Positions 4,498 to 32,000 of a stretch of DNA of 32,000 nt are shown in pieces. The position numbers and the translations under genes are program-made. The stretch lies in NCBI RefSeq assembly GCF_000341895.1, contig NC_020409.1, forward strand, positions 2,940,001 to 2,972,000. Reading direction: 5' to 3'. Below the pieces are notes generated by a model. It was not told the origin of the DNA. It saw only the letters and a list, made by a program, of their open reading frames with translations, and searched no databases. This stretch comes from Pseudodesulfovibrio piezophilus C1TLV30. Its GTDB lineage: Bacteria > Desulfobacterota > Desulfovibrionia > Desulfovibrionales > Desulfovibrionaceae. How positions within the stretch are numbered: position 1 is the stretch's first letter; each line of letters opens with the position of its first letter.

Positions 4498-7400
4498 GTG
4501 TCTGCAATTACACTGAAAGGCGTCGTTTTCGATTTGGATGGAGTCATCACCCGGACAGCGAGCGTGCATGCGCAAGCGTGGGAAACGGCTTTCAATGAAT
4601 ACCTCAAACAGGTTGCCGAGGAAAAGAACGTCCCATTCGAACCTTTTGACAGGACGAATGACTACCAAAATTATGTTGACGGCAAACCTCGGTTCGAAGG
4701 TGTACTCAGCTTCATGAAGTCGCGGGGTATCAGGCTTCCCCCCGGAGACCCCGATGACCCGCCAAGTCTCGATTCCATCTGCGGTATCGGCAATCGCAAG
4801 AATGCATTGTATCAGGAGATACTACAGAAGGAAGGCCCGGAGGTCTTTCAGTCCTCCGTGGACTTGATCCATGAATTGAAAAAGCAGGGAGTGCGGGTTG
4901 GTGTTGCGACGTCAAGTCGAAATTGCCAGCTTGTTTTGGAGTTGGCTGGCCTGCAAGATCTTTTTGAGACACAGGTTGATGGTGTCTTCTCGGCTCAGCA
5001 TGAACTGAAAGGAAAACCCGATCCAGATATTTTTGTGGCTGCTGCGCGGAATCTGGGACTGAATCCAGGTGAATGCGTGGTGGTCGAGGATGCCATCTCC
5101 GGGGTGCAGGCCGGTTGCGCAGGAAACTTCGGCCTGACACTCGGTGTCGCCCGGAATGTGCAGGGTGAAATGCTTTTGCGGTTTGGGGCGGATCTTGTGG
5201 TTTCCGATCTGGGTGAAATCACGGTGGACGACCTGCTTGAATGGTTTGAAACCGGTATGGCAACCGATGAGTGGTTCCTGACCTATTCCGGGTTTGATCC
5301 GGGTGATGAGAAATTGCGGGAGACTCTGACAACGGTTGGCAATGGTTATCTTGGAACTCGGGGAGCCTATGAAGCCGAGGAGGCTTCCTTCAATTTCTAC
5401 CCTGGAACCTATATTTCGGGAATTTTCAACAAGACTGCCAGCAAGGTGCATGGTCAGGATGTCTGGAATAATGATTTTGTCAATTGTCCAAACTGGTTGC
5501 CTGTGGAATTCAAGATAGGGAATGGTGAATTCCTCAGTCCGTTATCAATGGAGATATTGAGTTATTCCCACCAGCTCAATATGCGCGAAGGAGCCATGGA
5601 GAGAGATCTCGTGGTCAAGGATCAAGTGGGACGCATTACCCGCATCTCTTCATATCGGCTCGCATCCATGGCTGACCCGCATCTTTGCGCGCTCAAGTTT
5701 GACCTGACTCCACTCAATTATTCAGCCAAGATAACTTTCCGTTCATCTTTGGACGGTAATGTCGAGAATGGTGGAGTGGCGCGGTATTCAGCCTTGAATA
5801 CGCATCACTTGGCGAGGGTTTCCGGTGGAAAGGCGCCGGATGGAATATTCCTTCATATGGAGACAACTCATTCGCGTTATCAGATTGTCATGGCTTCCAA
5901 AGTGACCCTTCTGGAGGATGGAAAAGCTCTTAATGTGCGTAAGGAAGTTGTGCAGGAGCGAGCCAAGGTCTCGGAAGAGATGAAAGTCTCAGCCAAGGCC
6001 AATAATCGATATTCACTGGAGAAATTTGTCTACATTCGGACATCGCTGGATAAGACCCCAGGTGATTTGAAGGAAATGTGCCTCGATAGTCTGGCCAAGG
6101 TCCGAACCTTCCAGGGCGTTTACGGACCTCATGTCAAGAGCTGGAAGGCGCTGTGGCAGAAAGCCGATATTCGCGTGACTGGCGACCGTTTTGTTCAGCG
6201 TGTGCTTCGTTTGCATATCTATCATCTGCTGGTTACGGCCAGTCCGCACAATGTGGATCGGGACGCTGGAATGCCTGCCCGTGGCCTGAGTGGAGAGGCG
6301 TATCGTGGTCATATCTTCTGGGATGAATTATATATTCAGCCATTCTTTGATTCCAATTTTCCGGATATATCCAAGGCATTGTTGATGTATCGGTACAATC
6401 GTCTTGATGCGGCCAGGGAATATGCCCGGGAAAATGGGTACATCGGTGCCATGTATCCATGGCAGACTGCGGATGATGGCACTGAAGAGACGCAGGAAGT
6501 GCATTACAATCCCGAGTCCAAGCAATGGGACCCGGATTTGTCCCGGAATCAGCGTCATGTTTCCATCGCAGTCTTTGTCAATGCATGGCGCTATGTGTCC
6601 TGGACCGGCGACAAATCCTTCCTTAAGGACTATGGGGCTGAGATGATGCTCGATATAGCTCGCTTCTGGGGTGGAATTGCCGAATATGACGCAAAAACCG
6701 ACAAATATCATATAGAAGGGATCATGGGGCCGGACGAGTTTCATGAAGCGCTTCCCGGGAGTGATAAACATGGTATCAAGGACAATGCGTACACGAATAT
6801 AATGGTTGTCTGGCTGCTTGAGAAGGCTCTGATGATTCTCAAGGAGTTGCCTCCCAAGGCCCGCAAGGATGTTGTCGGAAAGATTGGACTTGGCGATGAG
6901 GAAATTGCCAAGTGGGAAGACATGCTCACCAAGCTCAACGTTATACTGACAGACGATGGAATCGTCAGTCAATTTGAAGGGTATATGGAACTGGATGAGC
7001 TTGATTGGGAGGGGTACCGCAAACGTTTCTATTCCATTCATCGAATGGATCGAATCCTCAAGGCCGAAGGGGATTCGCCGGATCATTACAAGGTGGCAAA
7101 GCAGGCTGACACGTTGATGGCCTGGTATGTTCTGGAACCGGAAGAGGTCGCTCGTATCCTTGAGCAGCTTGGCTATGCAGTGGAAAACCCACTTGATTTG
7201 CTCAAGAAAAATTATGATTTCTATGAGCAACGCACCAGCCATGGGTCGACCCTGTCCAAGGTCGTTCACGCGGTTATCGCCAAATATATCTATTCCAGTG
7301 ATATCTGCTGGGATTGGTTCATGGAGGCCATGCACAGCGATATCGAGGATACGCAGGGCGGGACGACAATTGAAGGGATACATACTGGTGTGATGGCCGG

Positions 7401-7659
7401 GACATTGGAGGTTATCAAACAGGATTTCGCCGGGCTGAACATGTCTTCGACCCCGATGAAGGTCGATCCGGATCTTCCCGAACATTGGGGGGAAATGCGG
7501 TTCAGCTTCATTTGGCAGAGTATCTGGTTTGACCTCGTCATTGATCAGGACAGGGTAAATATGACTGCCTATCACAAGGGTGACAAGGTTGTCCCTGTGG
7601 AAATATTTGGCAAGGAGTATCAACTCAAGCCGGGGATGACTGTGGAAGCCAGACGATAA
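4498..7659 (+). CDS. beta-phosphoglucomutase (HAD-IA) fused to a glycoside hydrolase family 65 disaccharide phosphorylase
   Basis: 1053-aa ORF with a GTG start at 4498 and AAGGAG (4487-4492) 5 nt upstream. The N-terminal ~240 aa carry the beta-PGM motifs VVFDLDGVIT, GVATSS, KGKPDPDIF and VEDAISGVQAG. The remainder is GH65-like, with TVGNGYLGTRGAYEAEEA, GLSGEAYRGHIFWDELYIQPFF and YRYNRLDAAREYARENGYIGAMYPWQ. Confidence 0.9.
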   Translation: MSAITLKGVVFDLDGVITRTASVHAQAWETAFNEYLKQVAEEKNVPFEPFDRTNDYQNYVDGKPRFEGVLSFMKSRGIRLPPGDPDDPPSLDSICGIGNRKNALYQEILQKEGPEVFQSSVDLIHELKKQGVRVGVATSSRNCQLVLELAGLQDLFETQVDGVFSAQHELKGKPDPDIFVAAARNLGLNPGECVVVEDAISGVQAGCAGNFGLTLGVARNVQGEMLLRFGADLVVSDLGEITVDDLLEWFETGMATDEWFLTYSGFDPGDEKLRETLTTVGNGYLGTRGAYEAEEASFNFYPGTYISGIFNKTASKVHGQDVWNNDFVNCPNWLPVEFKIGNGEFLSPLSMEILSYSHQLNMREGAMERDLVVKDQVGRITRISSYRLASMADPHLCALKFDLTPLNYSAKITFRSSLDGNVENGGVARYSALNTHHLARVSGGKAPDGIFLHMETTHSRYQIVMASKVTLLEDGKALNVRKEVVQERAKVSEEMKVSAKANNRYSLEKFVYIRTSLDKTPGDLKEMCLDSLAKVRTFQGVYGPHVKSWKALWQKADIRVTGDRFVQRVLRLHIYHLLVTASPHNVDRDAGMPARGLSGEAYRGHIFWDELYIQPFFDSNFPDISKALLMYRYNRLDAAREYARENGYIGAMYPWQTADDGTEETQEVHYNPESKQWDPDLSRNQRHVSIAVFVNAWRYVSWTGDKSFLKDYGAEMMLDIARFWGGIAEYDAKTDKYHIEGIMGPDEFHEALPGSDKHGIKDNAYTNIMVVWLLEKALMILKELPPKARKDVVGKIGLGDEEIAKWEDMLTKLNVILTDDGIVSQFEGYMELDELDWEGYRKRFYSIHRMDRILKAEGDSPDHYKVAKQADTLMAWYVLEPEEVARILEQLGYAVENPLDLLKKNYDFYEQRTSHGSTLSKVVHAVIAKYIYSSDICWDWFMEAMHSDIEDTQGGTTIEGIHTGVMAGTLEVIKQDFAGLNMSSTPMKVDPDLPEHWGEMRFSFIWQSIWFDLVIDQDRVNMTAYHKGDKVVPVEIFGKEYQLKPGMTVEARR

Positions 7660-7947: not shown

Positions 7948-10341
7948 CTAGATCCAGGCGCGTTCCCGTATCTTGGCGACATTCAACCGCCCCTCCATAT
8001 ATTGGCTCAGTGCGGAGACAGCCCGGTCGGATGATCGAAAAACCGGGATATCCGCTTCGGTCAATGCATGGATGAACCGTTCATAATACAGCCCGGCATC
8101 CACCGAGCAGACAATGGGAGTGTTGGTCTCCGAAACCAGCGTTTTGAGGTGCGCCACAAGCATTGCATCGGTTGCCGGATTCTCATTTTCATCAGTAACG
8201 ACATTGAGCGATGGAGACATGGGCACCAGTCCCATGACGACGGCATCCACACTGGCATCATCACACAGGGCGCGTGCCGCGAGCGCATGGACTTCATCGT
8301 CAGCGGCAGGGGTTATATCCAGCGGATTTCTGACAGTGACAAGTGAATCCAGTCTCTTTTTTCGAAAGAGGTCGCTGAGTTTTTGCACTGTATCCGGGCA
8401 GAGTGGGGCCAACCTCATTTCAAAATCGTCGGATTCAATGGAGTCTGCCATACCCACTGCTTCAAATCCTGCTGATGAGAGTGCCGCCAGTCTGTTGCCG
8501 CGGATGGTTTTGCCGTTGAGACGCTGGGCAAGGGTGACGAGGTTTTGGAACTCGGTGAAATTGCGGGCCACAATAGCTCCGGCCTGTCTGACGCAGGACT
8601 CGCAGACCATGTAGTCCCCTGCCAGGGAAGCAGTGTGTCCGGCAGTGGCGTCTTTGCCTTCACGCGTACGCCCTGCCTTGTAGAAAATGACATCCTTGCC
8701 TGCCAAAACAGCCTCGCGAACGGCCTTGCAGAACGACAGCCCGTCAAGATCTTTAAATCCTTCTGCATAGATGGCAATGACATCCACATCGTCTGCGTTC
8801 TTGAAATAGGTCGCCATGTCTCCCAGCGTCAGGTCGTTCTGATTTCCCATGGAGATCATGTATGCCGGTTCAATTTCCGGGCATTGTGCCAGTCGGGTGA
8901 TCATGAATGCTCCTGACTGGGAAATGAGTGCAGCACGTTTGTATGGTTTTCCATGGGATTTTGGGAATTTGTTTTCCGGGATGAACCATGTGTCGTATGC
9001 GGCGGGGTGGGAGATGACGCCCATACTGTTGGCTCCCAGAAAAACAGGTCCGGTTCCGGCCTGATGTGCGGCGTCAATTTTCGCGGCGATCTCTGTAGCC
9101 CTCTCCTTGCTCTCTTCGGTTTCACCCATGCCACCGGGTATGAGCATCACGGCTTCGATCTTGTTCGCTTCAAGTATTTGGTCGACAAGTTCCGGCACCT
9201 GTGGGGCCGCAACTGCCACAACAAACAGATCCAGTGTGCCGGGAATAGACTTCAGGTCCGGGACGCATTGAACCCCGTCAATTTCATTTGTCCCGGTTTT
9301 GATGACAAAAATATTCTTCTTGTCAAATCCGGCATCGAGCACATTCTTGAGAATGATGCGTCCGAAATTCATGCGTTTGCTGGATACACCTATGATACCA
9401 ATTGTTTGAGGTCTTGTGATGGATTTGATTTTTCCTATCGGACGGGGCACTGGTTTGGCTTGAGGGAGAGAAAACTTGCAAAGCCCGTCAAGAGGGATCA
9501 TTAGAAAATCGGTGAAAGCAAAGGGGTTGATTTCCAATTCTTCGATGACAAAGGGAGCTTCGGGATTCATGGGAGAGAAATATCGGGCGACTTCAATGAA
9601 GGCGGAAAAGCATTCGATGATCTGTTCGTCCGTGACTATTCGCCGTTGCCCGCGGGTCAGCCCCGCCAACTTGCGGTAGGAGATGGTTTTTTTGAATTGC
9701 TCGAAAAACTGTGGACCGTCGATCATGTCGACGGAAGCAGCTACGATGGCTTGTCCCTTTCGAAAACGTTCGGCGTAGAGCTCGGTGTCAGTTCCCCCTA
9801 GTCCGGCACTGATGACTAAGCCAAACTCTCTCGTATTACGAAGGCCCACGATCAGTTCATTGCCGAAAGCCTCTGAATCGGGCGGCATGAATTGGACCTG
9901 AAGCACACCCTTGATGTCGTTGCTGATGGCGGCCACAAGGGTTTCTCCTGATAACCCCTTGTAGGCTTCAGGGGCAGCCTCGTGGTGGCGCTCGACCCAA
10001 AGGGCGAAATTTGTCGGGACATCATAGAGCATGCGCCGAATCGCGGACCGTACCTTATTGGGTTCCTTGTCCACCACCTTGACGCCTTCCACTTCCGTTT
10101 TATGCAAAATAGTGGGGGAGACTATCTTGAGTACGGCCTTGTCGCCGGGGAGTGACATGATTTCCTCATCGGAAAGATGTTCGCCACGCCCCATCAGGAT
10201 ACTTTGCGGTGGTGTTTCTGCTCCAAGATTGGAAAGGAAGTCGTATACTTCATATTCATAGAGAAAAGCGCGTCCTTCCTCATGGGCCTTTTGCAGGCAT
10301 CCGGTCAGGGCGTTAAAGTCGACACGTGTCTGAGGTTGCAT
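7948..10341 (-). CDS. acetate--CoA ligase (ADP-forming) family protein, fused ATP-grasp + CoA-binding + ligase domains (paralog 1)
   Basis: The ORF extends to 10395, but the ATG at 10341 has AAGGA 7 nt upstream and aligns with the start of paralog 2. Motifs seen are the ATP-grasp region (LKIVSPTILHKTEVEGV, GLGGTDTELYAERF), the CoA-binding fold (TIGIIGVSSKRMNFG) and the phospho-His loop (TAGHTASLAGDY). Confidence 0.85.
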   Translation of the reverse strand: MQPQTRVDFNALTGCLQKAHEEGRAFLYEYEVYDFLSNLGAETPPQSILMGRGEHLSDEEIMSLPGDKAVLKIVSPTILHKTEVEGVKVVDKEPNKVRSAIRRMLYDVPTNFALWVERHHEAAPEAYKGLSGETLVAAISNDIKGVLQVQFMPPDSEAFGNELIVGLRNTREFGLVISAGLGGTDTELYAERFRKGQAIVAASVDMIDGPQFFEQFKKTISYRKLAGLTRGQRRIVTDEQIIECFSAFIEVARYFSPMNPEAPFVIEELEINPFAFTDFLMIPLDGLCKFSLPQAKPVPRPIGKIKSITRPQTIGIIGVSSKRMNFGRIILKNVLDAGFDKKNIFVIKTGTNEIDGVQCVPDLKSIPGTLDLFVVAVAAPQVPELVDQILEANKIEAVMLIPGGMGETEESKERATEIAAKIDAAHQAGTGPVFLGANSMGVISHPAAYDTWFIPENKFPKSHGKPYKRAALISQSGAFMITRLAQCPEIEPAYMISMGNQNDLTLGDMATYFKNADDVDVIAIYAEGFKDLDGLSFCKAVREAVLAGKDVIFYKAGRTREGKDATAGHTASLAGDYMVCESCVRQAGAIVARNFTEFQNLVTLAQRLNGKTIRGNRLAALSSAGFEAVGMADSIESDDFEMRLAPLCPDTVQKLSDLFRKKRLDSLVTVRNPLDITPAADDEVHALAARALCDDASVDAVVMGLVPMSPSLNVVTDENENPATDAMLVAHLKTLVSETNTPIVCSVDAGLYYERFIHALTEADIPVFRSSDRAVSALSQYMEGRLNVAKIRERAWI

Positions 10342-10529
10342 GGATATATCCTTGTGTGCTTGAGCGGTTATGTCATACGATCCTATCTTAGGCATGACCG
10401 GAGAAGCAAGCGGTCTTCCCCCTGCAGACCGTAGTTCGTCGTAGAAAAGTTGCTTGCATAGTGCGAGGAAGGACGGTACTACGGGCCGCGTCGGGTCTTC
10501 TCCGGCAATTCACTTTTTCAGGAGCGCCC

Positions 10530-16396: not shown

Positions 16397-16645
16397 CTAG
16401 GCTGTACCTGTGTCCAGGTCATACCCCATCTCCATGGCCATGAATTGCAAAGGACGGATGTCGTCGGTCACTTTCATGATTTCAAGGAGTGTTTCAGCGC
16501 CGAGTTTGGCGCTGGCATCAAAGGGATTGATTTCGCGCATGAGAGTCGAATAGGGTTTGTTTATTTTTTCAGCCACAACTTTTGCCTGGATACCACTGTC
16601 GAGAATGCAATCCTGAACCACTTTGGTTACGTTCCTATCAAACAT
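16397..16645 (-). CDS. phage 186 CII (CP76)-like small regulatory protein, paralog 2
   Basis: The track ORF starts at a GTG at 16657. The ATG at 16645 gives MFDRNVTKVVQD..., which is colinear with MFEKNLTKKMQD of paralog 1, and has GGAGGG 6 nt upstream. The core KPYSTLMREINPFDASAKLGAETLLEIM is conserved. Confidence 0.7.
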   Translation of the reverse strand: MFDRNVTKVVQDCILDSGIQAKVVAEKINKPYSTLMREINPFDASAKLGAETLLEIMKVTDDIRPLQFMAMEMGYDLDTGTA

Positions 16646-16705
16646 AGTGCCCTCCACATGTTTTGATTGCCTGAGCTGTTGCTTAAGAAAAGGTATTATT
16701 TGTTT

Positions 16706-16721
16706 AGCAATAGCTATGCCA
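16706..16721 (-). promoter_or_regulatory. sigma-54 (-24/-12) promoter of CII-like paralog 2
   Basis: The minus strand reads TGGCAT-AGCTA-TTGCT, with the exact GG-N10-GC spacing and 9 of 10 consensus positions of TGGCAC-N5-TTGCW. The predicted TSS near 16695 gives a leader of about 50 nt before the ATG at 16645. Confidence 0.7.
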
Positions 16722-23576: not shown

Positions 23577-23592
23577 TGGCACTGTGTTTGCT
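23577..23592 (+). promoter_or_regulatory. sigma-54 (-24/-12) promoter abutting the activator gene start
   Basis: TGGCAC-TGTGT-TTGCT is a perfect match to TGGCAC-N5-TTGCW, with GG at 23578-23579 and GC at 23590-23591. It is preceded by a 140-bp AT-rich tract. The predicted TSS is about 23603, and the ATG of the downstream ORF is at 23604. Confidence 0.7.
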
Positions 23593-23603
23593 TTGTCCCT
23601 GCC

Positions 23604-25187
23604 ATGCTACCCACAGTGCACGGACTCAAACTTTCGGCGTTGCTCGCCATATGTCAGGCCATAGACCAAGCTCTCAATTTGGAATCCGCCTTGGATGGAG
23701 TGTTGCGCATTTTATCCGAGCAACTTTCCATGCAGCGGGCGACCGTGACCCTTTATGACCCGGAAACCGGGCATCTTTCCATCAATGCTTCGTATGGTTT
23801 AACCGTCGAGGAAAAACAACGCGGCGTGTACAAGCTGGATGAAGGTGTCACGGGGCGGATTTTCCAGACCGGTGAACCTTATTATGTCCCGGATATCGAT
23901 AAGGAGCCACTTTTTCTCGACAAGACCGGGTCGCGTCGAGTCAAGCGGGGTATGATTTCCTTTATCGGAGTACCGATCATCCTGCACGGTGATCCCATTG
24001 GCGTTCTCAATGTGGATCGGCTCTTTGCAGATGACGTGGCCTTTGAAGAAGATGTGGATTTCTTGAAGGTCGTGGCTACGCTCATAGGGCAGTTCATCAG
24101 CCTGAATGAGAAGATCATGAAGAGGGAAGCCGTGCTCAAGCGCGAAAATACTTCCCTTAAATATCAGATATCAAAGAACACCAAAGGACCATACATCGTC
24201 GGGCACAGCGCAGCCATGGTGGAGGTACAGCGCCAGATGGAAAAGGTTTCTCCGACCAGGGCCACAGTGCTTTTGCTTGGAGAATCCGGTGTCGGCAAGA
24301 CTCTTATCGCTCAGATCATCCACGAATTATCCGAGCGCAAAGGGCATCCTTTCATCAAACTAAACTGTGCTTCAATTCCCGGAAATCTTTTGGAATCCGA
24401 GTTGTTCGGTCATGAAAAAGGAGCCTATACCGGTGCCAACGGCTCCAGGCCCGGTCGATTTGAAGAAGCGGATAGTGGAACTATCTTTCTTGACGAAATT
24501 GGTGAACTGCCGTTGGCTCTTCAGGCCAAGCTCTTGCGGGTTTTACAGGAAAAGGAACTGGAACGGCTTGGATCGAACCGGACACGCAGCATTGATGTTC
24601 GTATCCTGGCCGCAACCAACCGTGACCTTGGTGACCTTGTGGAACGAGGCAAATTTAGACTGGACCTTTATTATCGTCTAAACGTCTTTCCGGTACGTGT
24701 CCCGGCACTCAGGGAACGTAAGGAAGATATTACCGGGTTGATCAACCATTTTCTCCAAAAAATGGCTGATGATTACGGAAGAACAATTCATTTTACCTCC
24801 ACAGCTCTGGATGCGCTGATCCGCTATGACTGGCCGGGGAATGTTCGGGAGATGCAAAACCTCATCGAGCGTCTTGTCATCATGTCGGACACCGAGCGCA
24901 TCAGCCTGGAGTTCCTCAAAGCCTACCTCGCTCCGGGGCAAACTTCTGCCGTGCAGGAAGTCGTTCATTTCTCGGAGGAGGCACCACGGTTTTCTTCTCT
25001 CAAGGAATTTGAGCGAAACGAGGTGCTTGCCGCATTGGAAAGAAGTGGTTGGATTCAGTACAAAGCTGCTGAAGCGTTAGGTCTGTCTGCTCGTCAGATG
25101 GGATATCGTGTCAAGAAGTACGGACTGGAATCCATGATCGCGGAAGGCCGCGCCAAGCTCAGGCGAATCAAGGAAGTGGAAATGTAA
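23604..25187 (+). CDS. sigma-54-dependent transcriptional activator, GAF + AAA+ + Fis-type HTH (NifA-like architecture)
   Basis: The GAF domain runs [28 protein letters not shown]...[10 protein letters not shown]. The AAA+ core has Walker A GESGVGKT, the sigma-54 contact loop GAYTGA, and Walker B IFLDEIG. The C-terminal HTH is [23 protein letters not shown]. Confidence 0.93.
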
Positions 25188-25215
25188 TATTTTCGGCATA
25201 CCTCCACCCTTAGCC

Positions 25216-25252
25216 AGACAGGCCCCATCGACCGCATTGATGGGGCCTGTCT
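25216..25252 (+). terminator. strong GC-rich stem-loop between the activator and the downstream cassette
   Basis: agacaggccccatc (25216-25229) pairs perfectly with gatggggcctgtct (25239-25252) across a 9-nt loop. There is no T-run afterwards, so it could be a terminator, an attenuator or an RNA-stability element. Confidence 0.5.
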
Positions 25253-25336
25253 CGTTGTGGTGACAGAGCAGGTTGTTGTTGAACAGCGAGCCAAAACAGG
25301 TGTAGGCTTGTCTCTCGAAACATATGGAGAAAACCA

Positions 25337-25882
25337 ATGCCATCATTGAAAATAGATACATTTATGCCCCGTGAGGATCTGGCTGATTTTTTTCGCCGCT
25401 TGGCCCATGCCTTGGAAACGGGGGAAGGGGGAGAGCTTGCCTGTGCTCGTGAGTTCAAGAAAATCAAGATCAGTCTTAAGGACGAATACGGCCAGGTGTC
25501 TCTCAGGGCCAGAGTCAAGTCCGCCAGTGAGTGTCAGGCCGAAGAACCGGACTCGTTACCCAGTGAGACTCTGCACACACCCCCTGCACCGGCCAAACCG
25601 AAGTACAAGTTCCTCAAAAAACGCATGGGGTCGAGTTTCAAGGTCCTTTTCAAAATGATCCACCAGGGGAAAATGCCACCGGCAGCCGCAGTGGAAGAAT
25701 TTTTGAATGATTCAAGAATAATGGTCTCATATCCAGGGTATGGGGACCCGGCTTACGACGCTTATATGGCCGCGTGTGACGAATTTGCAGCAGCATATGA
25801 ATCCGGGGATTTGAAACGTCTCAATATGACAGTGGATACGTTGGTTCATCAAAAAGGACACTGTCACGCCAAGTACAAGTAG
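25337..25882 (+). CDS. uncharacterised protein with an amphipathic N-domain and a C-terminal ...GHCH... domain (resembles 'GAK system XXXCH domain' proteins)
   Basis: 181 aa with GGAG 7 nt upstream. The N-terminal ~60 aa (PREDLADFFRRLAHALETGEGG...KKIKISLKDEYGQVSLRARVK) resemble amphi-Trp-type domains but lack the Trp residues. A Pro/Ala-rich linker follows. The C-terminal domain is KYKFLKKRM...MVSYPGYGD...LVHQKGHCHAKYK. The family call is from memory and unverified. Confidence 0.55.
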   Translation: MPSLKIDTFMPREDLADFFRRLAHALETGEGGELACAREFKKIKISLKDEYGQVSLRARVKSASECQAEEPDSLPSETLHTPPAPAKPKYKFLKKRMGSSFKVLFKMIHQGKMPPAAAVEEFLNDSRIMVSYPGYGDPAYDAYMAACDEFAAAYESGDLKRLNMTVDTLVHQKGHCHAKYK

Positions 25883-25889
25883 GTGGGAA

Positions 25890-27035
25890 ATGCCTGATGA
25901 AAGTTTTGACCTGAGTATTGCGGAGAACGGTCCTCGTTGTCTTTTCTTCAGTGGTGGAACAGCACTTCGCGGAGTCTCCCGAGAGCTGATGCGTCATACG
26001 GCCAATTCGGTGCATGTTATCACTCCCTATGATTCCGGGGGAAGCTCGGCCGTGTTGCGACGGGCTTTCGGCATGCCGGCGGTTGGTGATATCAGGAATC
26101 GGCTTATGGCTCTTGCGGATTTGTCAGAAAAGGGCGGACGTGAGATTTTCGCCTTGTTTACCTATCGTTTTTCCAGAAAGGAATCGAATGCTGACCTTGC
26201 TGCGGAATTACGACGCATTGCTCAAGGAAAACATATTCTGGTCAATTTGTTGCCGGAGACAAAGCGGCCACTCATTCAGGACCATATACAATATTTTTTG
26301 CAAGTGATGCCCGCTGATTTTGATCTGCGCGGTGCCAGTATAGGCAACATTGTGCTGACTGCGGGATATCTTTCCCATGGCCGCCGTCTGGCTCCGGTTA
26401 TCGAAATATTTTCGCGATTGGCCGGGGTTCGCGGTGCGGTTTGTCCTGCGGTTGACAGGGACCTGCACCTGGCGGCGGAACTGGCTGACGGGGATATTGT
26501 TGTGGGACAGCATCTGCTGACCGGCAAGGAGACTGGCCCTTTATCCAGCCCCATTAAGCGGGTGTGGCAAACACAAGCATTGGATTCGGCAGCCCCTGTT
26601 GTCTCTTCGGCGGAGAGGGACGTCTGTGCTCATATAGAAAGCGCTGATCTGATCTGCTACCCAGTGGGAAGTTTTTACAGTAGCGTGGTTGCCAATCTTC
26701 TGCCGCAGGGCATAGGAGCATGTGTGGCTGCAAATCCCTGTCCGAAGGTCTTTGTTCCCAATCCGGTCGGAGATCCCGAACTCCTGGGGCATGGCGTGAC
26801 CGATCAGGTCCGCGTGTTACGCCGATATCTCCAACTCAGCGGTGCCCCTGAAGCGGCGGAAGTTTTGGGAATCGTGCTGGTTGACAGGAATCAGCCCTAT
26901 CCGGGCGGCTTGGATATTTCCGCTTTGGAGCATCTCGGTGTGACGGTTGTTGACACATCTCTCGCATCCGCCGAAAGTGCTCCCTGTTTTGATCCGGTTC
27001 TGCTAACGGAAGCGTTGTTGTCTTGTCTCCCGTAA
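25890..27035 (+). CDS. CofD/YvcK-superfamily (UPF0052-like) protein, 'GAK system CofD-like' type
   Basis: 381 aa, starting 8 nt after the previous stop with GGTGGG upstream. CofD-like signatures are CLFFSGGTALRGVS, VITPYDSGGSSAVLRRAFGMPAVGDIRNRL and GNIVLTAGYL. Confidence 0.75.
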   Translation: MPDESFDLSIAENGPRCLFFSGGTALRGVSRELMRHTANSVHVITPYDSGGSSAVLRRAFGMPAVGDIRNRLMALADLSEKGGREIFALFTYRFSRKESNADLAAELRRIAQGKHILVNLLPETKRPLIQDHIQYFLQVMPADFDLRGASIGNIVLTAGYLSHGRRLAPVIEIFSRLAGVRGAVCPAVDRDLHLAAELADGDIVVGQHLLTGKETGPLSSPIKRVWQTQALDSAAPVVSSAERDVCAHIESADLICYPVGSFYSSVVANLLPQGIGACVAANPCPKVFVPNPVGDPELLGHGVTDQVRVLRRYLQLSGAPEAAEVLGIVLVDRNQPYPGGLDISALEHLGVTVVDTSLASAESAPCFDPVLLTEALLSCLP

Positions 27036-27086
27036 TTTACAAATGACGCGGGGCGGGATAGAGTTATTTCAATCGGAGGACTCACC

Positions 27087-28082
27087 ATGAAAGCCATGCT
27101 GCTTGAGACATATGGGGACGGGTATGATTTCGTACAACATGATGTGTCGCGTCCGGTTCCCATGCCCGGACAAGTGCTCATTCGGGTTGTCGGATCAAGT
27201 TTCAATCCTATCGATAACAAGATAGCGACGCTTGGTGATCAACTCGGCTTCGCTCCTGCGCTTCCTGCAATACTCGGCATGGATGTGGCCGGGATTGTCG
27301 AGGACGTTGGTGGAGGAATGTCCCGGTTCCAGCCTGGTGATGCTGTCTTTGGCTGTGCCGGAGGGCTTGGCTCGATTCCAGGCGCTCTTGCCGAATTCAT
27401 GGTTGCGGACGAACGTTTGCTCGCTTTGGCTCCCACATGCATGGATTTGGCGGATGCGGCGGCTTTGCCGTTGGTCTCCATTACGGCCTGGCTCGGGTTG
27501 TTCAATAAAGCGAGGATTTCTTCTGGTGAAACACTGCTTGTCCAGGGTGGTGCGGGCGGCGTTGGGCATGTCGCGGTGCAGCTTGGCAGATATGCCGGGG
27601 CGCATGTTCATGCAACCGTCTCCGGCGATACCAAAGGGGCAGTCGTCGAAAGCCTCGGTGGTATTCCCGTGAATTATCATGATGTCGAGATGGCTGAATT
27701 AGTGGCCGATACACCGGAAGGGGAAGGTTTCAACGTAGTCTTTGATACTGTCGGCGGCAAGACTTTGGACGCGTCTTTCTTGGCAGCAGCCAATAATGGC
27801 AGAGTCATAACCACAGTTTCGCGGTCGACCCATGACCTGAGTTTGATGCATGCCAAAAGTCTTTCCCTGCATGTTGTCTTTATGCTTCTTCCCCTGTTTA
27901 CGGGAGAAGACAGGCATCCATACGGCCAGATTCTGGGCCAGATCGCCACCTTGGTCGAACAAGATGCCCTGGCAATTCTACTCGACCAGGAACGGTTTTC
28001 CTACACGGATATAGGGCAGGCCCATCGGTATTGGGCATCAGGTGAAGCCATGGGTAAGATTGTCATCGATGTTGCCGACTAG
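27087..28082 (+). CDS. medium-chain dehydrogenase/reductase, NADPH:quinone-oxidoreductase type
   Basis: 331 aa with GGAGG upstream. It has a GroES-like N-domain (GQVLIRVVGSSFNPIDNK) and a Rossmann motif (VQGGAGGVGHVAVQLGRYAGAHV). No catalytic-zinc Cys/His ligand pattern is visible. Confidence 0.88.
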   Translation: MKAMLLETYGDGYDFVQHDVSRPVPMPGQVLIRVVGSSFNPIDNKIATLGDQLGFAPALPAILGMDVAGIVEDVGGGMSRFQPGDAVFGCAGGLGSIPGALAEFMVADERLLALAPTCMDLADAAALPLVSITAWLGLFNKARISSGETLLVQGGAGGVGHVAVQLGRYAGAHVHATVSGDTKGAVVESLGGIPVNYHDVEMAELVADTPEGEGFNVVFDTVGGKTLDASFLAAANNGRVITTVSRSTHDLSLMHAKSLSLHVVFMLLPLFTGEDRHPYGQILGQIATLVEQDALAILLDQERFSYTDIGQAHRYWASGEAMGKIVIDVAD

Positions 28083-28343
28083 AGATGCCTCATCGGCTTT
28101 TTGCTTTCCGCCAAAAATCACGAATTGTACAAATCATTTAATATACCGAACAATTTCCGTTATGAAGGGTGTGGAAAACACCGAAACCTGTCGGGATTGT
28201 TGGTGTAAATATAATTTGCGGCTTGACAAAAACGGGCCGTGAGTAAATGCTGAAAAAGTTAAAAATGGTACAGTGTTGCGGCGCATGCAGGGTGCCCCGT
28301 CTCCCAATTGTTTTACCATTCAATCCAGAGTCAGGCGCTCATT

Positions 28344-30755
28344 ATGTCTTCAGAAAACAATATACCTCCCAAAACCGAAACGGCTCAGCTCTCGAATTCC
28401 ACACGTCAAGGAACCGGGGGCGGGGTGGAAGACACTTCCAAAAGTGCTGAGGCTTTTTCCGGGCCTCCTCCCGGCAAAAAAATCGGGGCTGGTTCCACCA
28501 CACAAGGCCAGCAGAAAGCTGCCGCTGCCGCCGAAGGGACGCAAGGAGCGGCTCAGGCCGGACCACCTTCTCCCCCGACGGGACAACAGCCAAGCGGGCC
28601 TGACCTTGAACGTGATGAACGTCTGTCGCCCAAGGATATCGATTTTCAACCACCTTTGGTGATCTGCCTGTCGATCATCAGCCGTCTGATGGGCAAGCCT
28701 GTTTCTTCGGCAACGCTCAAAGCAGGTATTCCCCAACAGGATGGTGTTATCACGGCCGCTTCCATAGTCCGGGCTGCCGGCCGTATAGGCATCCGGGCCA
28801 AAACCGTGCATCGTGGAGATCTTCGTTCCATTACCAAACTGGTACTGCCATGTATTCTGCTCTTGCGAGGGGGTAATGCCTGTGTCCTGATTGATACGGA
28901 TGATAAGATGGCCCGAGTCATGGTCCCCGGACAGGGAATGGACGAGACGGAGATGGATTTGGCGACTCTGGAATCGGAGTACACCGGATACGCCATTTTG
29001 TGTCATCGCGAGTCCAAGCTTGACAAGCGGGCGAGTGAACTGAAACTCGTCAAGACCAAACGGTGGTTCTGGGGGGCCATGCTTCAGTTTTGGCCAATAT
29101 ATCGCCATGTCATCGCTGCTTCCATCATGACCAACATGATTATCGTGGCTTCACCGCTCTTTGTCATGAATGTGTATGACCGGGTTATCCCCAATAATGC
29201 CGTGGAAACTCTCTGGGCACTGGCCATCGGCATCTGTCTTGCGTATATATTTGATTTTACGCTCAAAAATCTGCGGTCTTATTTTGTCGATGTGGCGGGG
29301 AGGAATGCCGACGTTCTGATCGGGAGCCGTATCATGCAGCATCTTATGTCAGCTCGGTTGGACCATATGCCCGAGTCTGCCGGGGCTGTCGCCAACAACG
29401 TGCGTGAGTTTGAATCATTGCGCGAGTTTTTCAGCTCCAGTTCGCTGGTGGCGCTTATTGACATGCCTTTTTTGCTCCTGTTCATTCTGGTCATCCATTT
29501 TATCGGTGGGCCTATTGCCTGGCCCATCTATATCGCAGTGCCTTTGGTTATTCTGTTCGGGGTGTGCCTTCAGATTCCCTTTCAGCACATCATTGAGAAT
29601 CACTACAAGGAATCGACCCAGAAACATGCGCTGCTCTTCGAAATAGTGCAGGGACTGGAGACCATCAAGACCTCCATGGCCGAGGGCCGGATGCAGGGGC
29701 GGTGGGAAAACGTCGTCGGGATGTCGGCCATGTCCAACAGCCGGGCCAAGATTTTGGCGAATATCTCTGTTACCTTCTCCATTTTTGTCACGCAGATGGT
29801 TTCGGTTTCGATTATTATCATCGGTGTTTTTCTCATTTCCAAGGGTGAATTAACCGTGGGTGGACTGATTGCCTGCAACATTCTCTCTGGGCGGGCAATG
29901 GCTCCTCTGAGTGCAGTCGCGGGATTATTGTCCCGTTTTCAGCAATCGCGCATGGCACTCAATGCACTCGATATGCTCATGGAGATGCCGAGTGAGCGGC
30001 CGACCGAAAAGGAAACGTTTCATTATGGTGCCGTGGAAAGTTCCTTGCAACTTGAGAATGTTTCCTTCAGCTACCCTGGAACAGACAAGGCCGTTCTTCA
30101 TGACATCAATTTGAATCTCAAGCCCGGTGACAAGGTCGGTATTGTCGGCCGAACCGGGGCAGGTAAATCCACCCTCGGCAAACTGATAGTCGGTCTTTAC
30201 CAGCCGCTCAGTGGTGCGGTGAAGGTTGGTAATATCGATCTGCGTCAAATGGATGTGGCAGATTTACGGCGTAAGGTGGGATATGTCTCGCAGGATTCCC
30301 TGCTTTTTTACGGGACACTCAAGGATAATCTTGCTTTCGGGTTGCCGGAAGCAGATGACCAGACGATCAAGGAGGCGGCTGATATCGCCGGGGTCAATGA
30401 TTTCGTCAAGGATCATCCTGCTGGATTCGGCATGATGGTGGGAGAGCGGGGGACTTCGCTGTCAGGTGGGCAACGCCAAGCGGTTTCCGTGGCTCGGGCC
30501 ATTTTACCCGATCCTGAAATTCTGATTATGGATGAACCTTCCAGCAATATGGACAATCAGTCGGAATATCGGCTCAAGTCAAAGCTTGAGCCATTTGTCA
30601 GGGAGAAGACTCTCATCGTGATTACACATCGTCATTCCATGTTGGACTTGGTGAACAGGCTGGTTATCATGGATAAAGGGCGCATCGTTGTTGATGGGCC
30701 GAAGAAGGCTGTTCTCGACGGGTTGCGATCCGGCAAGATCAAGGTCAACATGTGA
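28344..30755 (+). CDS. type I secretion system permease/ATPase with a non-catalytic C39-like N-domain (LssB/LapB-like) and a disordered N-terminal extension
   Basis: The track ORF begins at a TTG (28308), and the first ATG is at 28344. The C39-like domain (PPLVICLSIISRLMGKPVSSATLKAG...YTGYAILC) has no evident Cys-His catalytic context. Six-TM region follows. The ABC motifs are GRTGAGKST, LSGGQRQ, ILIMDEP and ITHR. Confidence 0.9.
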   Translation: MSSENNIPPKTETAQLSNSTRQGTGGGVEDTSKSAEAFSGPPPGKKIGAGSTTQGQQKAAAAAEGTQGAAQAGPPSPPTGQQPSGPDLERDERLSPKDIDFQPPLVICLSIISRLMGKPVSSATLKAGIPQQDGVITAASIVRAAGRIGIRAKTVHRGDLRSITKLVLPCILLLRGGNACVLIDTDDKMARVMVPGQGMDETEMDLATLESEYTGYAILCHRESKLDKRASELKLVKTKRWFWGAMLQFWPIYRHVIAASIMTNMIIVASPLFVMNVYDRVIPNNAVETLWALAIGICLAYIFDFTLKNLRSYFVDVAGRNADVLIGSRIMQHLMSARLDHMPESAGAVANNVREFESLREFFSSSSLVALIDMPFLLLFILVIHFIGGPIAWPIYIAVPLVILFGVCLQIPFQHIIENHYKESTQKHALLFEIVQGLETIKTSMAEGRMQGRWENVVGMSAMSNSRAKILANISVTFSIFVTQMVSVSIIIIGVFLISKGELTVGGLIACNILSGRAMAPLSAVAGLLSRFQQSRMALNALDMLMEMPSERPTEKETFHYGAVESSLQLENVSFSYPGTDKAVLHDINLNLKPGDKVGIVGRTGAGKSTLGKLIVGLYQPLSGAVKVGNIDLRQMDVADLRRKVGYVSQDSLLFYGTLKDNLAFGLPEADDQTIKEAADIAGVNDFVKDHPAGFGMMVGERGTSLSGGQRQAVSVARAILPDPEILIMDEPSSNMDNQSEYRLKSKLEPFVREKTLIVITHRHSMLDLVNRLVIMDKGRIVVDGPKKAVLDGLRSGKIKVNM

Positions 30756-30762
30756 GGCCGTG

Positions 30763-32000
30763 ATGAGCAATAAAAAATTTGATAGAGAAACACTGCTGTT
30801 CATGTCCGAAGTGGATCAGGCCATGCATGGTTCCGGGCGAAAGCTTGCGTATCTGATGTCTGTTTCCATTGTGTTGATGTTCGTGGGTTTTCTGGTCTGG
30901 GCCAAGTTTGCCGTTCTGGATGAAGTGACGCGGGGGTTTGGCAAGATCATTCCATCCCAACGAATTCAGGAAATACAGAATCTCGAAGGCGGCATCCTGA
31001 GCGAAATTTATGTTGATGAAGGCCAGGTGGTCAAAAAAGGCGATGTCTTGTGCCGGTTGCATAATGAGCAGGCTGCCAGTTTTTACCGAGATGCCTTTGC
31101 AAAAGCGCTTGAGCATCGGGCGGCTATTGCTCGGTTGATAGCCATTGTTGAAGGGATTGAACCAGTCTTTGATGATGAATTGGTGGAAAAAGCGCCGCAG
31201 TTGGTGCAGGACCAGCGCCGTATTTATAAAGCCCAATTGGATCAGTTTGATATCGAAGTCAGTTTGCTCCAAGATCAATATGAGCAGAAGAACCAGGAAA
31301 TCAATGAGATGAAAGCGCGCCGCAACCAGCTCGATTCAAGCCTGAAAGTGGCAAAAAAACAGCGGGCTATTGCCAAACCATTGGTCGAGAAACATATTCA
31401 TTCAGAACTGGACTATCTGGCGCTTGAGCAAAAAGTACTGGAGTTGAACGGAGATGTTCAAGCCTTGAATTTAGGTATTCCCCGCGTGGAATCTGCGGCT
31501 CGTGAGGCAAAGGGACGTGTCGAGCAGCGCAAAGCCGAGTTTCGCAGTGCTGCACTGGAAGAAATCAACCAGCGTCGACAGGAACTGAGTTCTATTCGGG
31601 AATCCTTGAGTGCCGGAAGCGACAGAGTGACACGGACCGATGTTCGATCTCCGGTGAGAGGGATTGTCAAAACGATTCACATCAATACCTTGGGTGGTGT
31701 TGTTCAGCCTGGTGAGTCGATCATGGAAGTCGTTCCTTTGGATGACTCCCTGCTCGTCGAAGCCCGTATCAAACCTGCTGATATCGCTTTTCTTCATCCC
31801 AGACAGGCTGCCCAAGTTAAAATTACTGCATATGACTCAGCTATCTACGGTGGACTGGATGGGACTGTCGAGCATATCAGTGCGGATACCATTGCCGATG
31901 AACGAGGCGAAAATTATTATCTTGTGAAGGTCAGAACCTCGAAGAGTGTCATGGAATACCGTGGAGAAAGCCTTCCTATCATTCCGGGCATGACCGCTCA
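30763..32000 (+). CDS. HlyD-family type I secretion membrane-fusion protein (partial, continues beyond the window)
   Basis: Not in the track because the frame stays open to the window edge. The ATG at 30763 has GAGG 5 nt upstream and lies 8 nt after the ABC stop. Hand translation gives MSNKKFDRETLLFMSEVDQAMHGSGRKLAYLMSVSIVLMFVGFLVWAKFAVLDEVTRGFGKIIPSQRIQEIQNLEGGILSEIYVDEGQVVKKGDVL..., which is a TM anchor, a lipoyl-like motif and long coiled coils typical of HlyD. Confidence 0.88.
   Translation, partial: MSNKKFDRETLLFMSEVDQAMHGSGRKLAYLMSVSIVLMFVGFLVWAKFAVLDEVTRGFGKIIPSQRIQEIQNLEGGILSEIYVDEGQVVKKGDVLCRLHNEQAASFYRDAFAKALEHRAAIARLIAIVEGIEPVFDDELVEKAPQLVQDQRRIYKAQLDQFDIEVSLLQDQYEQKNQEINEMKARRNQLDSSLKVAKKQRAIAKPLVEKHIHSELDYLALEQKVLELNGDVQALNLGIPRVESAAREAKGRVEQRKAEFRSAALEEINQRRQELSSIRESLSAGSDRVTRTDVRSPVRGIVKTIHINTLGGVVQPGESIMEVVPLDDSLLVEARIKPADIAFLHPRQAAQVKITAYDSAIYGGLDGTVEHISADTIADERGENYYLVKVRTSKSVMEYRGESLPIIPGMTA

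Follow-up and report, generated by a model that had tools for sequence, protein, structure and literature searches.

The superfamily of CofD- and YvcK-like proteins has been described in two settings. CofD and FbiA are 2-phospho-L-lactate transferases of F420 biosynthesis. YvcK/GlmR (UPF0052) of Firmicutes is a UDP-GlcNAc-binding regulator of GlmS; one study describes that only the liganded form binds the P-loop protein YvcJ, which is encoded next to it, and states that yvcK 'seems always associated to yvcJ' (PMC7525490). A third setting is the GAK system (TIGR04354–TIGR04358), whose canonical clusters run in the order XXXCH protein, unknown 389-aa protein, amphi-Trp protein, PhoU-kinase, RimK-type ATP-grasp enzyme, HprK-related kinase B (HprK-B), CofD-like protein and amphi-Trp protein, extended in some genomes by ParA and a further amphi-Trp gene. 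In the literature searched there was no mention of 'GAK system' or 'HprK-related kinase' and no functional study of the system was found, which agrees with an earlier reading of the present DNA from its letters alone (the sequence-only reading) that GAK proteins have no experimentally assigned function. Here we analyse a 32,000-nucleotide stretch of the Pseudodesulfovibrio piezophilus C1TLV30 chromosome (NC_020409.1, positions 2,940,001 to 2,972,000; hereafter the window), in which the gene for an XXXCH protein directly precedes that for a GAK-type CofD-like protein. We refer to the two genes as the pair. They lie between the gene for a GAF/sigma-54 activator and that for a quinone-oxidoreductase-type medium-chain dehydrogenase/reductase (MDR), and the sequence-only reading had joined all four into one module.

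Our analysis makes it probable that the pair is a self-contained two-gene operon, a reduced paralogous copy of two GAK components, and that the activator, a NifA-type protein, and the MDR are independent neighbours. All five window products considered here are exact matches to P. piezophilus proteins CCH49983–CCH49987 by sequence look-up, and the open reading frames (ORFs) have the positions and lengths that the sequence-only reading gave them. Its two GAK family assignments were also correct, since both proteins exceed the curated cut-offs of the hidden Markov models (HMMs) in an NCBIfam scan. The XXXCH protein scored 102.9 bits against TIGR04358 (cut-off 40) over residues 90–179, with no Pfam match, and the CofD-like protein scored 510.1 bits against TIGR04357 CofD_rel_GAK (cut-off 340) in a full-length match (1–368 of 368). 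The NCBI annotation of CCH49985 and CCH49986 already reads 'GAK system ...'.

The remaining GAK components are encoded elsewhere on the same chromosome. A protein search found a second P. piezophilus CofD-like protein (P0063), 57% identical to that of the window, and a second XXXCH protein (P0139), 50% identical to its window counterpart; both come from the same 3,646,098-bp record as the window pair and lie within a complete GAK cluster. The gene context of P0063 was read from L001, a contig with an identical protein (L numbers denote loci compared here). This cluster begins with genes for an XXXCH protein (176 aa), an unknown protein (389 aa), an amphi-Trp protein (88 aa) and a PhoU plus EcKL/APH-like kinase (550 aa), continues with the ATP-grasp enzyme (TIGR04356, 449.9 bits), HprK-B (TIGR04355, 550.2 bits) and the CofD-like protein (394 aa), and ends with an amphi-Trp protein (168 aa), a 59-aa ORF, a ParA-like protein and another amphi-Trp protein (146 aa). 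Exact-sequence look-up placed the ATP-grasp enzyme (CCH49419) and the second XXXCH protein (CCH49423) in the P. piezophilus record itself, and HprK-B (CCH49418) and the PhoU protein (CCH49420) of P. piezophilus belong to the same 90%-identity clusters as the L001 copies. Accession numbers about 560 lower put the cluster approximately 560 genes from the window pair.

Within the 32-kb window itself, HMMs built from 40–80 members of each family and run against all ORFs of at least 45 aa detected no GAK ATP-grasp, HprK-like kinase, PhoU-kinase or stand-alone amphi-Trp gene. The sequence-only reading was thus right that the locus has no GAK ATP-grasp gene, but its suggestion that the usual partner is missing falls, because a complete cluster with the ATP-grasp gene exists on the same chromosome. 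The enzyme it had described as D-Ala-D-Ala-ligase-like is of the RimK type rather than the Ddl type, given that its next-best matches are MptN, RimK, LysX and CofF. The window pair resembles the canonical system in that both proteins pass the GAK-model cut-offs and the XXXCH protein shares the two-domain build and the C-terminal CH motif with its canonical paralog. It differs in lacking genes for the ATP-grasp enzyme, the HprK-like and PhoU/EcKL kinases, the 389-aa protein and stand-alone amphi-Trp proteins, and in its gene order: the XXXCH gene directly precedes the CofD-like gene in the window, whereas the two are first and seventh in the canonical cluster. The pair is an old paralog of two of the canonical-cluster genes, best read as inserted between nifA and a block of genes consisting of the MDR gene and a type I secretion system (T1SS).

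Sequence features around the pair delimit it on both sides. A terminator hairpin after the activator stop codon (-39.6 kcal/mol, z = -7.3) separates the activator gene from the pair. In L082, the closest relative, the stem is preserved by compensatory replacement of A-U with G-C, and a T-run follows; P. cashew (L086) retains the hairpin as well. The sigma-70-like promoter block upstream of the XXXCH gene is conserved in L082 and in L083, in which the activator gene is absent. A GGTGGG ribosome-binding site overlaps the XXXCH stop codon and the ATG of the CofD-like gene lies 7–8 nt past it. This short gap and the overlapping site suggest that the XXXCH and CofD-like genes are probably translationally coupled as a two-gene unit. 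Downstream, the MDR gene has a sigma-70-like promoter that starts right past the CofD-like stop codon and is conserved in L082, L083 and P. cashew.

Reduced GAK loci are not confined to P. piezophilus. We scanned CofD-like loci in one genome per species, which yielded 80 loci annotated with seed and profile searches, 73 of them with enough flanking sequence. A canonical ATP-grasp and/or kinase gene lay upstream of the CofD-like gene in 52 of the 73, and neither was present in 21 (29%). Among these 21 reduced loci, an XXXCH gene was directly adjacent in four (L003, L029, L031 and L038), an amphi-Trp gene was kept in two (L017 and L036), and 15 had neither. Outside this tally, an XXXCH gene also adjoins the CofD-like gene in the window, L082 and L083; orthologous XXXCH/CofD-like pairs occur in several species at 60–75% identity. 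In a neighbour-joining tree without support values, reduced CofD-like loci were scattered, and the window protein clustered with those of L002, L003, L010 and L018, all of them reduced. Clustering of flanking ORFs found no common partner for the scattered loci, only lineage-specific neighbours, although the longest-ORF calls used were noisy owing to antisense ORFs in GC-rich genomes.

Several further observations on GAK clusters were made in the course of this comparison. ORFs of 598–871 aa in L004, L005, L009, L051, L072 and L077 that looked like HprK-B fusions were rejected as such, as they were judged to reflect over-extension under the first-start-codon rule, with the ATP-grasp match in another frame. 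In L034 and L071 (Sedimenticola and a gammaproteobacterial metagenome-assembled genome), PhoU-kinase, ATP-grasp and HprK-B are encoded on the minus strand and diverge from the CofD-like gene instead of preceding it on its own strand; related loci in Thiodiazotropha (L060, L063, L073, L074 and L080) have only the CofD-like gene. Canonical clusters of Pseudodesulfovibrio (L001, 11968-13162; L006, L007, L008 and L013) end in a gene for a ParA/MinD-type ATPase, followed immediately by one for an amphi-Trp protein, an arrangement that calls to mind positioning systems made of ParA and an adaptor, such as McdA/McdB. In Maridesulfovibrio genomes, a third CofD-like gene, which is deeply divergent, is encoded on the opposite strand 7–8 kb downstream of the canonical cluster (L012, 17811-18947; L015, 18620-19789; L016, 17801-18940; L020, 18589-19737; all minus strand). 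The outgroup of the CofD-like tree consists of these four genes.

To place the CofD-like protein with respect to the described members of its superfamily, we compared family scores and predicted structure. It matched Pfam CofD (PF01933), the superfamily it shares with CofD and FbiA, at 143.8 bits, and the YvcK model TIGR01826 at 115.7 bits, under the cut-off of 196. Its AlphaFold2 (AF2) model is confident, with a predicted local distance difference test score (pLDDT) of 91. The best Foldseek matches of this model were the YvcK/UPF0052 structures 2o2z, 2hzb and 2ppv (E about 1e-21, TM 0.81–0.86, with 0.86 for 2o2z), whereas CofD (3c3d) was matched with E 6e-10, TM 0.65 and a root-mean-square deviation of 7.5, and FbiA likewise scored much lower than YvcK. 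A profile search of the PDB returned UPF0052 chains only. The superfamily motifs SGGTA, DSGGSS, GDIRN and GxSxGN were invariant over 16 GAK CofD-like homologs, and nucleotide-binding motifs are common to the window protein and YvcK/GlmR. Compared with the YvcK structures, it carries a helical insert of about 47 residues at approximately residues 100–150 (residues 110–158 of the query were unaligned), modelled with pLDDT above 90. It further differs from YvcK/GlmR in lacking a yvcJ, whiA or glmS context, and no yvcJ-like gene was found nearby in family scans of the window. The canonical GAK CofD-like gene does directly follow the gene for the P-loop kinase-like protein HprK-B, much as yvcK follows yvcJ. 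By its predicted fold, the window protein therefore resembles YvcK/GlmR, a ligand-binding regulator, more closely than it does CofD.

The sequence-only reading had taken the protein for a CofD-type phosphotransferase, and an enzymatic role underlies the alternative that survives best. The CofD-like protein could take a phospho-linked group from a nucleotide-activated donor and attach it either to the XXXCH protein itself, for example to its conserved C-terminal tail, or to a ligand that this protein holds, thereby building a protein-bound or small-molecule cofactor. The Pfam CofD match, the invariant glycine-rich and Asp motifs and the tight coupling of the two genes are in keeping with such a reaction, as is the presence in canonical clusters of a RimK/MptN/CofF-like ligase and two kinase-like proteins. 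Uridyltransferase activity has in addition been reported for the GlmR of Listeria monocytogenes (PMC10128056). However, by structure the protein stands nearer to the YvcK type, for which regulatory ligand binding is the best-supported role, than to CofD or FbiA. Family scans found no F420 biosynthesis (cof/fbi) genes within the window, so that the canonical cofD context the sequence-only reading had proposed to look for is not that of this locus. To our knowledge, sulfate-reducing Desulfovibrionaceae are not known as F420 producers. Since 15 of the 21 reduced loci have neither an XXXCH nor an amphi-Trp neighbour, the XXXCH protein is not an obligate substrate of the CofD-like protein. We consider this enzymatic alternative unlikely.

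The second protein of the pair is built of two domains. In its AF2 model (mean pLDDT 80), a small alpha/beta N-domain (residues 1–65) is joined by a disordered, acidic Pro/Ala linker (67–84), already noticed in the sequence-only reading, to a C-terminal four-helix bundle with helices at 90–109, 116–131, 139–156 and 159–175, which ends just before the tail CHAKYK. Residues C176-H177 lie five residues from the C-terminus. The N-domain had no Pfam match and remained under the amphi-Trp cut-off (TIGR04354/PF20068, 18.9 bits against 31), but hhalign aligned it with stand-alone amphi-Trp proteins at a probability of 92.4% and E 5e-7; judged by this profile comparison, it is a divergent homolog of amphi-Trp. 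In the literature searched, the term 'Amphi-Trp' was found once, in a protein-abundance table: in the Dissulfuribacter thermophilus proteome, the amphi-Trp protein DITHS69_2464 ranks in the top 20 by abundance for one growth condition (PMC13490349), so some members of this family are very highly expressed.

The XXXCH family is small, with 534 clusters at 50% identity in a set of 1.84 billion representative proteins, and is uniform in architecture, the XXXCH domain being C-terminal in all. Over 151 representatives, Lys94 and Gly136 are conserved in 151, His177 and Phe122 in 150, Met129 and Tyr140 in 149, Cys176 in 142 (otherwise Ser or Ala) and Met97 in 139. On each helix the conserved residues are gathered on a single face (p = 0.043, 0.001, 0.005 and 0.018). 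None of 150 homologs carries a CxxCH motif, and none has a signal-peptide-like N-terminus, from which we infer that the protein is cytoplasmic.

The top Foldseek matches of the XXXCH model were cytochromes c' and b562/BRIL (E 0.02–0.2, target TM about 0.58). Comparison by hhalign with Escherichia coli b562, the sequence of which was checked against the PDB, gave a non-significant E of 0.095; this single alignment puts CHAKY on YHQKY of b562, with His177 on the haem ligand His102 and Cys176 on Tyr101. In PDB entry 2bc5, c-type haem linkages have been engineered into b562, and we take Tyr101 to be one of the positions changed to Cys. Like b562 and the class II cytochromes c (c' and c556), the XXXCH domain is a four-helix bundle of about 90–100 residues with a His at the C-terminal end of helix 4, followed by x-K-Y-K/R, and with a conserved Met as an option for a second ligand; as in the CXXCH motif of class II cytochromes c, a Cys immediately precedes the His. 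It differs from them in the absence of significant sequence similarity, of the first Cys and of a signal peptide, and, whereas those cytochromes are periplasmic, it is cytoplasmic and fused to an amphi-Trp-like domain. By fold and alignment comparison, the near-invariant Cys-His of the XXXCH family sits where b562 and c' cytochromes bind haem, and the conservation of His177, Met129 and Met97 is compatible with haem ligation. That the XXXCH protein binds haem, or another planar or metal ligand, is on these models a tentative proposal.

We then considered whether the flanking genes belong with the pair. The MDR scored 173.6 bits against the PIG3-type model TIGR02824, under the cut-off of 296.8, so that its assignment to the MDR superfamily is by Pfam only; its best PDB match, 3gaz, is a structure of unknown function. 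Downstream of it (28308-32000) lies the gene for an LssB-type T1SS ABC transporter (932 bits). In relatives (L082, 9432-13868), the ABC transporter gene is followed by those for an HlyD/AprE-type adaptor, a Peptidase_C93 protease, which we presume to be LapG-like, and a PAS-HD protein. This block with its protease has the look of a module for secreting and releasing an adhesin, one that accompanies the MDR throughout. The order in P. cashew is nifA, terminator, MDR promoter, MDR (69% identity), T1SS ABC transporter (86%), HlyD and C93 peptidase, with no XXXCH or CofD-like DNA between nifA and the MDR gene. P. sediminis likewise has the MDR (63%) and T1SS (81%) block and lacks the pair.

The CofD-like protein and the MDR might nonetheless form a functional unit, for instance one that makes a nucleotide-linked quinone or enone metabolite and then reduces it, with the XXXCH protein as an accessory. 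The CofD-like gene is immediately upstream of the orthologous MDR gene in six loci with three different upstream contexts, and in two of these, L018 and L085, no XXXCH gene was found beside it. To the extent that the sequence-only reading had proposed a comparison of neighbourhoods, this adjacency does recur in relatives, whereas co-occurrence with the activator was confined, among the pair loci compared, to L082. Yet the MDR gene keeps its own conserved promoter, MDR orthologs (63–69% identity) persist with the T1SS block in L086 and L087 without an adjacent pair, and no MDR gene lies beside CofD-like genes outside this one clade. Because the block exists without the pair and the MDR gene retains its promoter, the adjacency is best read as one ancestral insertion, and we regard both a CofD-like/MDR unit and the oxidoreductase partner of the sequence-only reading as improbable.

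On the upstream side, the activator scored 526.4 bits against TIGR01817 nifA, 2.4 bits short of the cut-off (528.85), and some of its close orthologs carry the NCBI name NifA. It shares with NifA the GAF, sigma-54 AAA+ and HTH architecture. It has orthologs in P. cashew (92% identity), P. sediminis (87%), Maridesulfovibrio (81%) and D. oxyclinae (67%), the last three of which adjoin nifB (Radical_SAM plus Nitro_FeMo-Co) and nifEN-type Oxidored_nitro genes. This linkage agrees with the nifVHDKBENBA operon described for the genus (PMC11678503). In the P. piezophilus window and in P. cashew the gene is detached from nif genes, and in this it differs from a typical nifA. By sequence and gene order the activator is most probably a NifA ortholog, a neighbour rather than part of the GAK unit.

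The element TGGCACTGTGTTTGC is the sole exact match to the sigma-54 consensus in the window, where about 0.06 would be expected by chance in 64 kb, and it is kept in L082 while its flanks diverge. It drives the activator gene, not the pair: no sigma-54 site was found within two mismatches upstream of the XXXCH gene or of the ACD-like gene that precedes the activator gene. The NifA upstream activator sequence (TGT-N10-ACA) was not found near the nifA promoter, and its window-wide counts were at chance level. The sigma-54 promoter ends 12 nt before the ATG in the window (23591-23604) and 13 nt before it in L082. As this leaves no room for a Shine-Dalgarno sequence, the nifA-like mRNA would be leaderless or nearly so; coding-type conservation downstream argues that the ATG at 23604 is the real start. 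A second good sigma-54 promoter match, TGGCATAGCTATTGC (16707-16721, minus strand, one mismatch), is followed after about 50 nt by an unannotated 86-aa ORF (16397-16657, minus strand).

The single module of the sequence-only reading, spelled out, would have the genes for activator, XXXCH protein, CofD-like protein and MDR regulated by sigma-54 as one unit for small-molecule or cofactor modification, with the GAF domain as ligand sensor; the ACD-like gene would perhaps stand in for the ATP-grasp partner. The genes are indeed co-directional and closely spaced, the sigma-54 promoter is genuine, and L082 has the same five-gene order. However, this arrangement of ACD-like and activator genes upstream of the pair is common to the window and L082 only. 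Neither gene is found there in L083, L085 or L003; CCG/Fer4 and Fe-ADH genes take this position in L083 and an arginine decarboxylase gene in L085. The activator is nif-linked in three relatives and is more conserved (81–92% identity across genera) than the CofD-like protein (57–71%). A strong terminator and no sigma-54 site stand between activator and pair, the MDR has its own promoter and is also found without the pair, and the GAK ATP-grasp enzyme is encoded elsewhere in the genome. A single module is thus very improbable, and comparative genomics largely refutes it. The nifA and MDR genes are probably independent transcription units that came to adjoin the pair by genome rearrangement. Least credible of all is that the pair is a decaying, functionless duplicate, for although it lacks every enzymatic partner of the canonical cluster, both ORFs are intact, every family-invariant residue is retained, orthologous pairs persist in several species, and the ribosome-binding sites and promoter block are conserved.

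For the self-contained pair we propose the following working model. The XXXCH protein would be a cytoplasmic ligand-binding protein, the bundle of which holds haem or a similar planar or metal ligand through the essentially invariant His177, with Cys176 and a conserved Met (Met129 or Met97) contributing. The CofD-like protein would act as YvcK/GlmR does, binding a nucleotide-diphosphate ligand and engaging partner proteins in a ligand-dependent manner. Together the two might constitute a sensor/adaptor branch acting in trans, which would supply input to the ATP-grasp enzyme and kinases of the canonical cluster or make use of them. Taken as a whole, this mechanism is possible but doubtful.

Several points weigh against parts of this picture. 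Because the terminator in the window has no good T-run, transcription from the nifA promoter may in part read through it. The CofD-like gene lies directly upstream of the MDR gene in the window, L003, L018, L082, L083 and L085, and a functional link between the two may be compatible with that adjacency. The CofD-like protein may be either a binder or a transferase, action of the pair in trans with the canonical cluster is pure inference, and no experiment on any GAK protein was found in the literature searched. The resemblance of the XXXCH protein to cytochromes is statistically weak, by the Foldseek E values as by that of hhalign, and a sequence relationship found no support in Pfam (nothing to E 10) or in PDB profile searches (to E 10, chance flavodoxin and HPt matches). 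Four-helix bundles are common and the PDB is crowded with b562 fusions. Covalent attachment of haem in the cytoplasm would be unusual, and 9 of the 151 XXXCH homologs lack Cys176.

The features of the locus are collected in Table 1. Among the neighbouring genes, the ACD-like gene has a paralog at 7948-10395 (minus strand, 815 aa) with the same ATP-grasp, CoA-binding and ligase build (1104 bits by phmmer). Both score far under the cut-offs of the models for characterised acetate-, 3-hydroxypropionate- and 4-hydroxybutyrate-CoA ligases. A 1053-aa fusion of a beta-phosphoglucomutase-family HAD domain and a family-65 glycoside hydrolase/phosphorylase domain is encoded at 4498-7659 (plus strand).

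Table 1. Genes and putative control elements at the P. piezophilus XXXCH/CofD-like locus (window positions)
Feature	Coordinates	Strand	Remarks
ACD-like acyl-CoA ligase family protein CCH49983	20988..23426	+	812 aa; ATP-grasp_5 + CoA_binding_2 + Succ_CoA_lig (Pfam)
Sigma-54 promoter of activator gene (TGGCACTGTGTTTGC)	23577..23591	+	exact consensus TGGCAC-N5-TTGC
NifA-type GAF / sigma-54 AAA+ / HTH activator CCH49984	23604..25187	+	527 aa; GAF + Sigma54_activat + HTH_8
Terminator hairpin of activator gene	25216..25252	+	perfect 14-bp GC-rich stem, 9-nt loop
Sigma-70-like promoter of XXXCH/CofD-like pair	25279..25308	+	TTGAAC-N18-TAGGCT; predicted at consensus level
GGAG ribosome-binding site of XXXCH gene	25326-25329	+	3' of the sigma-70-like promoter
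XXXCH protein CCH49985	25337..25882	+	181 aa; TIGR04358 match; C-terminus LVHQKGHCHAKYK
GAK-type CofD/YvcK-superfamily protein CCH49986	25890..27035	+	381 aa; TIGR04357 match
Sigma-70-like promoter of MDR gene	27036..27064	+	TTTACA-N17-TAGAGT; promoter scan
Quinone-oxidoreductase-type MDR CCH49987	27087..28082	+	331 aa; Pfam ADH_N/ADH_zinc_N

As a locus, the pair is low in novelty, being a paralogous two-gene remnant of a family annotated by NCBI, flanked by unrelated genes. Its value lies in the handle it offers on the GAK system, for which no published study was found in the literature searched. A bolder view, to which we give little credence at present, is that XXXCH proteins form an unrecognised class of cytoplasmic haem proteins (His/Met-ligated, possibly with a single Cys thioether made without periplasmic maturation) that would serve as amphi-Trp-tethered redox, gas or haem sensors controlling a YvcK/GlmR-like protein, with the pair as the minimal functional GAK core. 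For the CofD-like protein, the resemblance to YvcK/GlmR makes nucleotide-sugar binding, more than F420-type chemistry, the activity to look for. The XXXCH and CofD-like genes stay adjacent where the rest of the GAK cluster is absent, and this persistence points to their products as direct partners.

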